64,000 nt of DNA from a virus, in the IMG/VR virus record IMGVR_UViG_3300037608_000032, positions 11,043 to 75,042 of that record; one strand, given 5' to 3'. A model generated the notes under the pieces. The model searched no databases, was not told the DNA's origin, and saw only the letters and a list, made by a program, of their open reading frames with translations. The position numbers and the translations under genes were made by a program. Every line of letters starts with the position of its first letter. Within the stretch, counting starts at the first letter, position 1. Below, piece by piece: positions 1 to 61,568 of this stretch.

Positions 1-1293
1 CAGCTTGAGGCGCATGCCGAGATCGCCAAGCGGGTGCAGGGGTATGTGGTCCTGCCCTGCGGCGGGGGCAAGACCACGCTCGGTTCAACAAGTGTCTTGC
101 ACCTGAATCAATCTTCTCTGGTGCTCGTTGGGAGCGTTGACCTGCTTGACCAGTGGGACGGGGCCCTGATTCGAGGCAGCGCCGGGAAGGTGAGACCGAG
201 GCTGATCGGGGGCGGGAGCCGGGTGGACCTGCGACCCTTGAGGCCGGGTGAGGTGGCCGTGGCTACGGTGCAGAGTCTCTACGACCGGCCCGACATCCAG
301 CCGTTCCTGGACTCGGTGGCCATTCTGCTTGGAGACGAGATCCACCATGTCCCGTGCAGGCAGTTCCGCTACGTCGTAGACCGGTGCGCTGCCAGGTGGC
401 GGCTCGGGCTCTCCGCAACGCCGGACCGGTCGGACGGGTGGGGCTTCCTGCTTCGGGTCTTGCTCGGTCCGATGCTTTTCAGGAGGACTTCGCGTGAGCT
501 CGTAGACCTCGGGTTCCTCCAGTGCCCGACGATCATCCCGGTCCGATCCGAGTGGGGGCCAGGGCCTGCCGAGTATCGCTGGCGGTTGACGTGCTCGGAG
601 TGCGGGTTCAAGGGGGAACACCCGTGGGGACCGTGGCAGCGAGGAGAAGCCCAGTGCCAAGGCAAGCGCCGGGTGACCGGTCCGCGCGGAGGGGTCAAGT
701 TGGAAAGATGCTCGCACCTGTTGGAAATTGACTGCGAGGCCAGGCAAGGTGACCTCGACTGGGGCAAGACCTCCACGGCGCTGTTCACTGACGGTAGTCG
801 TCAGCACCTGTTGGCGACTTTGGCACGGGCTGCGGTGGGGACCGGGCGAAGGGTCTTGATGCTCGTCGGGCGCAAGGCCGGGCTCGAAGACATCGCCGGA
901 AAGACGGGACAGGGAGGCGTGCGAGTCGCGGCCGTATCTTCGAAGACATCTGCCAGAGACGAGCGGATCGGGGCCTTTCGGGCGGGCAAACTGGACGTGC
1001 TGATCGCTACGTCGCTGGCTGACGAAGGGCTGGACGTTCCCGAGCTGGACTGCGTGGTGCTCGGTCAACCCGGAAAGGACCCAGGGAAGGCCCGCCAGCG
1101 GTCCGGTCGGACTACCAGACCCCAGGGCAAGCCCGCGGTGGTCTTCGACGTAGTGGACCGGGGTGACACGATGTCCCGCCACTGGTCAGCGCGGAAGAAG
1201 GCCTACGTCGAAGAGTACGGGGAGCGGTGCTTGGGAGCGCCAAGGCCGGTGTCGGTTGACGAAGCCGTGGCCATCATGCGCCGGCTCGGGTGA
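1..1293 (+). CDS. SF2 (DEAD/DEAH-like, XPB/UvsW-type) helicase with Zn-ribbon insert; 5' truncated
   Basis: Walker A LPCGGGKT, DEIHH, GLSATPDR, EGLDVPELD, QRSGRTTR; CSECG insert; frame open from base 1. Confidence 0.9.
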   Translation, partial: QLEAHAEIAKRVQGYVVLPCGGGKTTLGSTSVLHLNQSSLVLVGSVDLLDQWDGALIRGSAGKVRPRLIGGGSRVDLRPLRPGEVAVATVQSLYDRPDIQPFLDSVAILLGDEIHHVPCRQFRYVVDRCAARWRLGLSATPDRSDGWGFLLRVLLGPMLFRRTSRELVDLGFLQCPTIIPVRSEWGPGPAEYRWRLTCSECGFKGEHPWGPWQRGEAQCQGKRRVTGPRGGVKLERCSHLLEIDCEARQGDLDWGKTSTALFTDGSRQHLLATLARAAVGTGRRVLMLVGRKAGLEDIAGKTGQGGVRVAAVSSKTSARDERIGAFRAGKLDVLIATSLADEGLDVPELDCVVLGQPGKDPGKARQRSGRTTRPQGKPAVVFDVVDRGDTMSRHWSARKKAYVEEYGERCLGAPRPVSVDEAVAIMRRLG

Positions 1294-1418
1294 CTTCGAA
1301 GTCCTGGCTACTACCTGATCGAACCCCAGCAAGGAGACCAGCCACGAAGCACACCGGGGGAGCGTGTCTACCTCAACTCAGCGCTCTCCCGAACTTCGTG
1401 CGGTACTCGGAGGACAGC

Positions 1419-59920: not shown

Positions 59921-59921
59921 A

Positions 59922-61568
59922 ATGGTCTTCACGACTCCGGCGCTCGAGCGGTGGAAGCGGTGGGGCGTCGGGCCTCGCCAGCGGATGAACGCCTGCTGGC
60001 AGGCCGTGTGTGACCGAGACCCGACCTTCAAGTCCGTCTACATGTGCGTGGAGCTCGTCTTCGGCGGGGACGTCGTGGTCAGGTTCGCGCGGGGGCCGAT
60101 CAAGACGACGTCGTCGCTGGACGGCACGGTCTACGAGTACCAGCAGGGATTCATCGAGGAGCCTGACATCGACCACGTCCTGGATCTCGGGTCGAACTCC
60201 GCGTCCGCCCGGTCGTTGACGTTCACCCTGCCGGCGTTCGTGGTGCGACCGTCGGAAATTCTGCTCCGGGGCGGGATGCTCGCGGGCGTGGGTGAGATAT
60301 CCCTCCAGGTAGACGGCGGGGACTACGAGCTGCGCTACGTGCTCCTGCGCGGGGACATGACCGGCGGCGTAGCCATGGGCGCGGACGGGGAAGGCGTGCA
60401 TGTCCAGCTTTCGGACCCGCGGGCGACCCAGAGTCTCCAGGTACCCGAGACGGCCGTAGACTTGGACCGATGGCCGCTAACTCTTGAAGCCGCAGTGGGA
60501 ACCCGGTACCCGTTGATATTCAATGGCTACCCATATGTACCCTGCCAGCGGGTTTTGAACGACTTCGGAGCAACCGGCTTGAAGTTCCTGGCGTGCGCGC
60601 CCGGAAAAGACTTGCAGGTAAACGCGGTTTATGTCACCGCGGGGGCGTTTTTGCCCACCGAGGTAGACGACATCGACGGCAAGGGAACCCCGTGCAAGAC
60701 GCTCGACTTCTCAGCGAGCGCGGGACCTTGGATTGACACTGACACGGTCTACGCGAACCTGTACAGACTCGCGACCACTCCGGCGATGTCCGTGGTTCAG
60801 ATCGTCCGGAAGCTCCTGGAAGGCTACACATCGTTGGGGAGACTCGGCTTGAATCCGGACCTGTTCTCGTTGGCCGACGTGTCGATGCCCGCGTACCCTC
60901 CGAGCGTACTCATCAACGCATCAGGGGAAGATGCCGTATCGGTGCAGGACTTCGTGGAGAGCACCCTACTGGCGAGCTTCCCCATGATCTTCATGACCTA
61001 CGCTGGGCAAGGGCTGGGGCCCGTAGTCGTAGATCGACGACCTTTTCCAGACCGAGGGAACATCCACGGGAAGCTCGTAGGCAAGCAGTTCCCGTTGGTG
61101 CAGCGGCTGGTCTGGGGCAACGAGACGGACAAGGAGTCGCTCTGCAACAGCTTCGAGCTCCGGTACGGGTTCAACGCCCTCGACAACACCTTCGAGAAGA
61201 TCATCCGACGAGACGCCTCGAATTCGGCTGCGTGCAGGCTGTCGGAACAGATGGTGGGCGAAACCCGTCCGGCTACGGCCATCGAGTCGCCCTACATCCA
61301 TGACGACGTACTTGCAAACTACGTGATTGACTGGCTCGTAGCTCATCGGACACTTCCGGCCTATTACGTCGAATGGTCCTGCTTGCCAGCGGTGCTGCTC
61401 AGGTATCAGCTCGGCATGAACGTCCGTTACATGGATCCTGACATCGCGGCTTTCGCAGATTGTACGGCAACGATCACTCGGCTGTGCTACTCTAGAGGCG
61501 AGCCCGTGATCGGGTTGACCGTCTGGCATCCAGCGTGGAATCTCCTGCTTCTTGGGAGCACAGCATGA
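59922..61568 (+). CDS. tail hub/baseplate protein
   Basis: GGAGG RBS; YPLIFNG; position. Confidence 0.65.
   Translation: MVFTTPALERWKRWGVGPRQRMNACWQAVCDRDPTFKSVYMCVELVFGGDVVVRFARGPIKTTSSLDGTVYEYQQGFIEEPDIDHVLDLGSNSASARSLTFTLPAFVVRPSEILLRGGMLAGVGEISLQVDGGDYELRYVLLRGDMTGGVAMGADGEGVHVQLSDPRATQSLQVPETAVDLDRWPLTLEAAVGTRYPLIFNGYPYVPCQRVLNDFGATGLKFLACAPGKDLQVNAVYVTAGAFLPTEVDDIDGKGTPCKTLDFSASAGPWIDTDTVYANLYRLATTPAMSVVQIVRKLLEGYTSLGRLGLNPDLFSLADVSMPAYPPSVLINASGEDAVSVQDFVESTLLASFPMIFMTYAGQGLGPVVVDRRPFPDRGNIHGKLVGKQFPLVQRLVWGNETDKESLCNSFELRYGFNALDNTFEKIIRRDASNSAACRLSEQMVGETRPATAIESPYIHDDVLANYVIDWLVAHRTLPAYYVEWSCLPAVLLRYQLGMNVRYMDPDIAAFADCTATITRLCYSRGEPVIGLTVWHPAWNLLLLGSTA

Follow-up and report, generated by a model that had tools for sequence, protein, structure and literature searches.

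The DNA examined here (the window) is a 64,000-nucleotide stretch corresponding to bases 11043-75042 of G000, a 75,042-bp IMG/VR record (IMGVR_UViG_3300037608_000032) from an uncultured groundwater phage. Gene calling on this record, which has a GC content of 63%, yielded 83 genes and a coding fraction of 93-94%. Approximately 57 of the 83 predicted proteins were scanned against PHROGs or Pfam, from which the function names used herein are taken. Virion and lysis genes include those for a large terminase of the lambda GpA type (PF05876), a portal protein, a major head protein, and an endolysin. Genes for replication and recombination code for a beta-clamp, a MoxR/VWA pair, a CHC2 zinc-finger protein, an SNF2-type helicase, a PD-(D/E)XK nuclease, a Sak4-like protein, a T7-gp4-type primase-helicase, and an XPD-like helicase. 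Dispersed among these genes is the nine-base word CCGGCGATG, the subject of this report. It is present in 31 exact copies in the window (20 on the + strand and 11 on the - strand) and in 39 copies in the whole record (23 + and 16 -), and is the most frequent 9-mer of G000.

The word is a selected DNA-level signal

An earlier note, made from the sequence alone, had listed 29 copies between positions 891 and 60788. An exact word search of the window, combined with placement on gene models, recovered every one of them at the position and on the strand given, together with two that had been missed, at 13337 (-) and 17123 (-). The note's rough estimate that base composition would yield about two copies is close to the expectation from dinucleotide shuffles of the window (1.45, standard deviation 1.17, maximum 5), and none of 100 such shuffles reaches 31. 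The word read backwards has no copy in G000.

Codon-aware models, on which the note had staked its claim, were run and fall far short of the observed numbers. When codons were shuffled gene by gene, 3.0 sense and 2.0 antisense copies are expected from synonymous shuffling and 0.8 and 1.5 from shuffling of codon order, compared to 24 and 10 observed. Genome-wide, the expectation is 10.5 (synonymous) or 8.4 (codon order) compared to 39 observed, values for which the six intergenic sites were left unshuffled. None of the 300 and 200 codon shuffles comes near the observed count, and the enrichment over them is 8- to 30-fold, or 5- to 12-fold for the antisense copies alone. Therefore, codon use does not explain the abundance of the word.

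As the note had also stated, the copies fall in all reading frames (sense 12/8/4, antisense 2/2/5) and in intergenic DNA. With the first gene set, 24 copies are sense, 9 antisense, and 6 intergenic. The 33 copies that lie within genes are scattered along the gene length, and the intergenic share (6 of 39) compares with a non-coding fraction of approximately 6.5% (p = 0.04). Synonymous codons would permit the word at 68 positions of G000 without changing the encoded protein, and it is present at 33 of these; where the protein reads Pro-Ala-Met, it is used at 11 of 14 positions.

An artefact of chance, codon use, or amino-acid repeats, to which the GC-rich composition of G000 and the abundance of the sub-words CGGCGATG (62 copies, the most frequent 8-mer) and GGCGATG (93 copies, the most frequent 7-mer) might seem to point, is refuted by both kinds of shuffle, by the lack of reversed copies, and by the occurrence of the word in all frames of unrelated genes. 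A signal acting mainly at the RNA level was likewise dropped because the antisense copies are so enriched. We conclude that the word is a selected DNA-level signal and not a by-product of protein sequence or codon use. A literature search with four forms of the exact word returned no match, and it is on this search that we regard the word as not being in print.

Most exact copies in the window lie on the sense strand of rightward genes. Those in frame 0 are at 6308-6316 (primase-helicase gene), 15116-15124, 28414-28422 (last codons of a Mom-like gene), 32622-32630 (portal gene), 34497-34505, 46954-46962, 56225-56233 (a 1897-aa gene), and 60780-60788, all on the + strand. Frame 1 holds those at 1852-1860 (PD-(D/E)XK nuclease gene), 3135-3143 (Sak4-like gene), 8923-8931, 12736-12744, 43337-43345 and 44609-44617 (both in a 992-aa gene), and 49834-49842, whereas frame 2 holds those at 26054-26062 (DUF1643 gene), 39881-39889, and 43647-43655 (again the 992-aa gene). 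Two further sense copies, at 23541-23549 and 23919-23927 on the - strand, are in frame 0 of leftward genes. Antisense copies are found on the - strand at 891-899 (SNF2-type helicase gene), 13337-13345 (C5 methyltransferase gene), 17123-17131, 48388-48396 (endolysin-like gene), and 51280-51288 (a 1389-aa gene), and on the + strand at 23363-23371, within a leftward gene. The remaining copies are all on the - strand. Two are intergenic and co-oriented with transcription, one at 21573-21581, 44 nt upstream of a leftward gene, and the other at 22568-22576, between two leftward genes. Another, at 25030-25038, lies in the intergenic DNA between divergent genes and precedes by 9 nt a promoter-like element, GGCTACTAC, on the + strand. 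The last two are anti-oriented, one at 46257-46265 (intergenic) and one at 6091-6099, which the gene models place either in intergenic DNA or at the 5' edge of the primase-helicase gene.

Extended motif, relatives, and genome context

The bases that flank the word are also constrained. A pyrimidine (C or T) immediately precedes the word (position -1) at every one of the 39 exact sites. Positions -2 to -5, which are rich in C, carry G in only 1, 1, 3, and 5 of the 39 sites where about 12 would be expected, and A follows the word at a single site. The motif is thus asymmetric and approximately 15 nt long: 5'-(four G-poor, C/T-rich positions)-Y-CCGGC-[G/C]-[A/C]-TG-(not A)-3'. A search pattern of this form, HHHY-CCGGCSNTG-B, has 57 matches in G000 compared to 3 for its reversed control. 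Across a set of 63 sites picked with a position weight matrix, the T and the G of the closing TG are each present in 62, and the base before them is A in 48, C in 11, and T in 4. This pattern is compatible with 5'-MTG-3', and it is partly built in, since these positions belong to the matrix that selected the sites.

Among one-letter variants, CCGGCGCTG has 24 copies in G000, TCGGCGATG 15, CCGGCGGTG 10, and CTGGCGATG 9. Copies of CCGGCGCTG are flanked like the exact word, pyrimidine tract included, and divide into 13 sense and 11 antisense. On the - strand, antisense copies occupy window positions 177-185 (record 11219; with the pyrimidine tract), 3696-3704 (14738), 3720-3728 (14762), 4688-4696 (15730), 5072-5080 (16114), 12424-12432 (23466), 12476-12484 (23518), 26294-26302 (37336), 32521-32529 (43563; portal gene), 40517-40525 (51559), and 56403-56411 (67445). 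Sense copies are at 8431-8439 (19473), 11820-11828 (22862), 36701-36709 (47743), 40421-40429 (51463), 48825-48833 (59867), 54005-54013 (65047), and 54027-54035 (65069) on the + strand, and at 21458-21466 (32500) and 63230-63238 (74272) on the - strand, within leftward genes. Three same-strand pairs of sites are spaced 19-24 nt apart: window 3696/3720 (24 nt), window 54005/54027 (22 nt), and 14426/14445 in the relative G002.

Relatives of G000 were fetched with an alignment of terminase homologues, which provided 30 IMG/VR loci and 80 metagenome loci. Some of these use other dialects of the same site. G000 itself carries the ending CGATG 39 times, CGCTG 24, CCATG 3, and CCCTG 1. In G001 (41 kb; terminase 59% identical), the site is written as CCGGCCATG (CCATG, 16 copies) and CCGGCCCTG (CCCTG, 6 copies), preceded by the same pyrimidine tract, and G002 (39 kb; terminase 58%) mixes CGATG, CCATG, and CCCTG. 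The extended pattern outnumbers its reversed control by 19 to 1 in G001 and by 21 to 0 in G002. It is at background in G004 (2, control 2) and G005 (3, control 2), which have most structural genes in common with G000 at approximately 50% identity; these two genomes offer 11 and 20 protein-compatible positions, and the word is used at 0 and 1 of them. A comparable word was sought in G004, where ACGAGGACG occurs 14 times (12 sense, all in one frame, and 2 antisense) and CAGGGCGTC occurs 8 times (7 antisense). Unlike CCGGCGATG, both are judged to be coding-level words because they are tied to one frame.

In a quick tree of the large terminase (TerL), G000, G001, and G002 fall in one clade, with a Shimodaira-Hasegawa-like approximate likelihood-ratio support of 98. 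This clade also holds L051, the nearest TerL neighbor (73% GC), in which neither the word nor any comparable word was found. The word-bearing phages have GC contents of 61-63%, compared to 65-73% for relatives that lack the word. Three scans of IMG/VR with 15-mers returned 188 stretches, of which only pieces of G001, its continuation L249, and G002/G003 are motif-rich; each scan is estimated to detect only about one-third of motif-rich genomes. This restriction to the kin of G001 and G002 favors a reader that is intrinsic to the clade.

The earlier note had counted about 22 of its 29 sites as following local transcription, and the fuller set agrees, co-orientation being seen at 23 of the 31 sites in the window and 28 of the 39 in the record (binomial p about 0.01). 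For the extended pattern in G000, 38 matches are co-oriented and 19 anti-oriented. The lean is also seen in G001 (13 sense, 4 antisense), whereas G002 has no bias (12 sense, 14 antisense); the corresponding strand splits (+:-) are 23:16, 18:6, and 15:15 for G000, G001, and G002, respectively. The sense share of the exact word (24 of 34) is close to the sense-compatible baseline (43 of 68, p = 0.48), such that the bias is no greater than the excess of sense-compatible positions, and compatible positions are used to a similar extent in sense (23 of 43) and antisense (10 of 25, p = 0.32). Therefore, the bias toward the transcribed strand is real but modest, and antisense copies are also kept by selection. 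In this sense the note's overall reading, a selected DNA-level signal that leans to the transcribed strand, was sound, while the analogies that it named fit only loosely, as discussed below.

Sites are dispersed, with a mean gap of 1.2-1.8 kb. Co-oriented copies are more even than random placement (combined P = 3e-4), whereas anti-oriented copies are not. Specifically, the coefficients of variation (CV) for co-oriented and anti-oriented copies are 0.64 (P = 0.0026) and 0.87 in G000, 0.55 (P = 0.019) and 0.96 in G001, and 0.57 (P = 0.075) and 0.89 in G002, and the exact words on the + strand of G001 have a CV of 0.35-0.40 (P <= 0.0003). This evenness is only suggestive because the search pattern was chosen after the data had been seen.

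Individual sites turn over quickly. Over approximately 15 kb, the DNA of G001 (extended by its continuation L249) matches that of G002 at 72-75% identity, and 5 of 19 site positions are common to both, compared to about 1-2 expected neutrally. One site lost between them has a replacement approximately 100 nt away. A strain of G002 at 97% identity retains 10 of 10 sites. Fast turnover, retention above the neutral level, and nearby replacement together suggest that selection maintains a site somewhere in a neighborhood, and not one at an exact position.

Several other features of the genome were recorded. CheckV estimates the completeness of G000 at 68%, and the record is labeled "linear." However, record bases 1-99 are 100% identical to bases 74899-74997, within a tandem array of 15/60-nt units (window 63735-64000, record 1-240) that belongs to a repeat-bearing gene on the - strand. 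Given this terminal identity, the contig probably closes on itself at the array and may be nearly complete. To the left of the window, a leftward arm (record 1170-9684) encodes the beta-clamp (DnaN), a MoxR-type AAA ATPase adjoining a VWA-like protein, and the CHC2 zinc-finger protein (563 aa, with a zinc finger of the DnaG type; record 7993-9684). Nearly the whole record has a positive GC skew, both leftward gene blocks included, which hints that replication is one-directional with the + strand as the leading-strand product. Genes for DNA modification occupy window positions 13111-20469 and 25881-28425 and code for a C5 methyltransferase, two S-adenosylmethionine (SAM) methyltransferases, a protein with a ParB-like N domain, an ABC-GNAT protein, PanD, a DUF1643 protein, and a Mom-family protein; judging from this gene content, the phage DNA is probably modified. 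No Rfam family or tRNA was found in the window.

G000 has no close cultured relative, its terminase being at most 21.5% identical to those of cultured phages by tblastn. Megablast returned no match, and a profile search of genome contigs with the TerL alignment returned only a 27%-identical match, in a Zixibacteria metagenome-assembled genome. The stretch itself was found among Logan contigs in three groundwater DNA sequencing runs, with no RNA run listed.

A second recurrent element, GGCTACTAY, has 11 copies, at window positions 1306, 2838, 8205, 12561, 14603, 16217, 25048, 30160, and 49057 and record positions 2660 and 10485. Nine of these are 17-105 nt upstream of predicted starts, and the element is probably a -10-like promoter element. 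It is common to relatives, with 17 copies of GGCTACTA in G001 and further copies in G002 and L053. In the main divergent intergenic region (window 25030-25056), the - strand copy of CCGGCGATG ends 9 nt before GGCTACTAC on the + strand, and therefore sits roughly at the -35 position of this promoter-like site. A late-promoter reading of CCGGCGATG was rejected: the position at gene starts belongs to GGCTACTAY (9 of 11), and CCGGCGATG is scattered along genes.

Possible readers of the word

A long and asymmetric word that is present on both strands and in all frames, occupies half of the positions available to it, is evenly spaced in one orientation, changes position quickly, differs in dialect among relatives, and is confined to part of a clade points to a DNA-level site that is used many times. 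Our tentative preference is that it is read by an enzyme that the phage encodes and that works on a single strand, although we infer both the enzyme and its act. Such an enzyme would read the word of approximately 15 nt on one strand and act repeatedly along the genome, either cutting the word-bearing strand or starting a new strand there. The first form would resemble the site-specific nicking at the 9-mer TACT/RTGMC in tf/LUZ24-type phages. In the second, the words would be preferred primer-start sites of the T7-gp4-type primase-helicase, whose gene lies at window positions 6134-8182 on the + strand (phrog_239, E = 1.2e-66) and has an ortholog in G001 at 54% identity. This protein would be the candidate reader if the sites are used for priming.

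Sites for TOPRIM primases of the T7 gp4 and DnaG type are trinucleotides with a cryptic 3' base, and synthesis starts opposite a pyrimidine. By analogy, the invariant 3' TG of the word could supply the start and the cryptic base, and CCGGCG and the pyrimidine tract would be copied into a primer rich in GC and purines. The even spacing of approximately 2 kb and the T7 precedent for extended sequence context would also fit priming. If the word does program nicking or priming, then the phage could fix where its strands open or begin, and the word would be a metagenome marker for such phages. It also provides a defined 15-nt substrate for the candidate enzymes, namely the primase-helicase, the CHC2 zinc-finger protein, and the PD-(D/E)XK nuclease.

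Several points weigh against a strand-processing site. As far as the published accounts of nicked phages go, their sites are on one strand only (PMC3517423, PMC11780129), whereas sites here are on both strands in all three genomes. No nickase was identified among the G000 proteins scanned. The spacing is not significant for G002 or for anti-oriented copies, quite apart from the post hoc choice of the search pattern. The split in GC content between genomes with and without the word would also be produced by a word that the host specifies. Sister lineages that lack the word probably have similar primases, their contigs missing that region. Moreover, we know of no primase that needs so long a word, a requirement of 9-15 nt being to our knowledge without precedent. 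Known TOPRIM primases need three to five specified bases (PMC12839067).

A more ambitious and, in our view, unlikely proposal is that strand starts are hard-wired in this clade, such that a gp4-type primase, or a nickase serving the replisome, requires the word of approximately 15 nt. A nickase of this kind would supply the replisome with 3' ends or with sites for clamp loading, one word per approximately 2 kb would be kept on the non-transcribed strand that is the lagging-strand template, and dialects would arise as word and enzyme co-evolve. In a still bolder version, the sites might load the phage beta-clamp for clamp-coupled transcription like that of T4, with the phage's own sigma factor, which lacks region 4.

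Instead of an enzyme that processes one strand, the reader could be a monomeric, sequence-specific DNA-binding protein of the phage with approximately 40-60 sites, acting either as a stoperator-like repressor or silencer or as a protein that coats or organizes the genome. This is possible, though we consider it rather doubtful. The word is asymmetric and approximately 15 bp long, much like the 13-mer that monomeric Cluster A repressors bind (PMC9283540). Stoperator specificities are also reported to diverge between phages, in parallel with the dialects seen here. Its many copies lean to the transcribed strand by 2:1 in G000 and about 3:1 in G001, one copy is 9 nt upstream of the GGCTACTAC element, and intergenic DNA holds somewhat more than its share. 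The earlier note had named stoperators as one of its analogies. However, 33 of the 39 copies are within genes and scattered along their length, antisense copies are strongly enriched, and G002 has no orientation bias. In addition, the proteins scanned showed neither an integrase nor a repressor that combines a helix-turn-helix (HTH) with another DNA-binding domain, in a genome where many small proteins are unmatched; the sole HTH match is weak and lies in a 105-aa protein.

It is also conceivable, though again not probable, that the word is specified by the host. A Chi-like sequence would tame a nuclease of the RecBCD/AddAB type on linear replication or packaging intermediates, with one dialect per host species. 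A short, asymmetric word in all frames, once per 1-2 kb and with a moderate skew, has a signature resembling that of Chi. In agreement with this, when the genomes are read with the terminase forward, the + strand carries more copies (23:16 and 18:6) and holds them at even intervals. The terminase belongs to the lambda GpA family (PF05876), presence of the word follows GC content as a proxy for the host, and positions turn over fast. However, nine fixed positions with a 5' tract and a 3' bias exceed what is typical of Chi, which has 5-8 nt and no 5' pyrimidine tract. Furthermore, G002 carries two dialects side by side without strand skew, and no unrelated word-rich phage was found among the 188 IMG/VR stretches, given the one-third sensitivity of each scan.

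We regard as improbable the idea that the word is the target of a DNA-modifying enzyme of the phage (the C5 methyltransferase, the Mom-like protein, or the ParB-like/GNAT/PanD set) and marks a modified base. The load of modification genes in G000 is unusually heavy, and CCGG within the word, like GGCC in the G001 form, is a common target of C5 methylases. Nevertheless, protective modification needs no set density and provides no reason for an enrichment of 15- to 25-fold, the C5 methyltransferase of G000 has no counterpart in G001 at E <= 1e-5, and G005 has an ortholog of the Mom protein and not the word. In addition, the motif strand of CCGGCGCTG contains no A, and the S-A-S-N-Y context of Mom is present on neither strand.

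A tag for DNA uptake by a naturally competent host (uptake signal sequence or DNA uptake sequence, USS/DUS), carried passively by the phage, is very unlikely. Such tags share with the word a core of 9 nt flanked on one side by a weaker preference, a presence on either strand and in every frame, a frequency of about one copy per kb, and dialects. However, the genes of G000 are suggestive of a virulent phage that brings its own replication machinery, which leaves no way for copies to accumulate through uptake. In addition, even spacing is limited to co-oriented copies, and the 188 IMG/VR stretches include no unrelated phage with the word.

Comparison with known systems

Partition sites (parS) are palindromic, approximately 16 bp long, and few or clustered. 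The word does not fit parS, given its asymmetry and its dispersal, and the earlier note's suggestion of loading sites for the ParB-like protein is not supported; the matches of that protein are confined to N-terminal ParB/nuclease-type PHROGs. Chi and USS/DUS, like the word, are short and scattered; they are found in every frame, change position over time, and vary among related species. However, they are features of host chromosomes, whereas the present word is known from one phage clade only.

T7 gp4 priming shares with G000 the encoded enzyme family (phrog_239) and a density of about one site per 1.5 kb. In the relevant portions of two reports, this primase recognizes single-stranded DNA with extended context, and approximately 26 strong sites in 40 kb are reported to be chosen via a pentamer and a 10-nt flank (PMC12839067, PMC6136900). 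Unlike the word in G000, T7 sites are not described there as an over-represented exact word or as having dialects. Moreover, the T7 context is 3' of the pentamer, whereas the extra information here is 5' of the invariant TG.

The stoperators of Cluster A mycobacteriophages (read by L5 gp71 or the TipsytheTRex repressor) are also asymmetric, at 13-15 bp, and present in tens of copies whose orientation correlates with transcription and whose specificities diverge between relatives, according to the account consulted (PMC9283540). The same source places stoperators in promoters and short intergenic spaces and reports that function is lost upon reversal. In contrast, 85% of copies here are within genes, approximately one-third are anti-oriented and yet enriched, and no repressor of the Cluster A type or lysogeny gene was found among the proteins scanned. 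In its location and in its dependence on orientation, the word does not fit a true stoperator.

The nearest documented phage phenomenon is the nick-associated 9-mer of tf/LUZ24-type phages. Nick motifs are known as TACT/RTGMC and WACTRTGAC in tf/LUZ24-like phages, R/GCGCRGG in T5, and CGACxxxxxCCTA/CTCCGG in phiKMV-like phages. In what the two principal reports say of them, these motifs, like the present word, are asymmetric, approximately 9 nt long with one or two degenerate positions, more than 10-fold enriched, and absent outside their clade, and they lie mostly in genes with a lean to the coding strand, have lineage dialects, and have no known function (PMC3517423, PMC11780129). For example, the 9-mer in 61 tf-like phages has approximately 9 copies compared to 0.7 expected, with 88% in genes and mostly on the coding strand (PMC11780129). 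A shift in dialect between TACTGTGAC and TACTATGAC is described for tf, together with a proposal that nickase and site co-evolve (PMC3517423). The differences are that nick motifs occupy one strand at one site per 3.5-5 kb, whereas the word occupies both strands at one per 1.2-1.9 kb and has a 5' pyrimidine tract. Identity with the phiKMV nick consensus was considered and rejected. Only CCTACT-CCGG-like letters are in common, all three matches to CCTACTCCGG in phiKMV are at annotated phage promoters, and the downstream letters differ.

Dispersed, clade-specific DNA words in phages have been known for 50 years, beginning with the nicks of T5, without an accepted function. What the present case adds is an uncultured groundwater lineage in which such a word is very dense, fills approximately half of the positions that the encoded proteins allow, lies on both strands, has a well-defined extended form, and is written in at least two dialects by close relatives.

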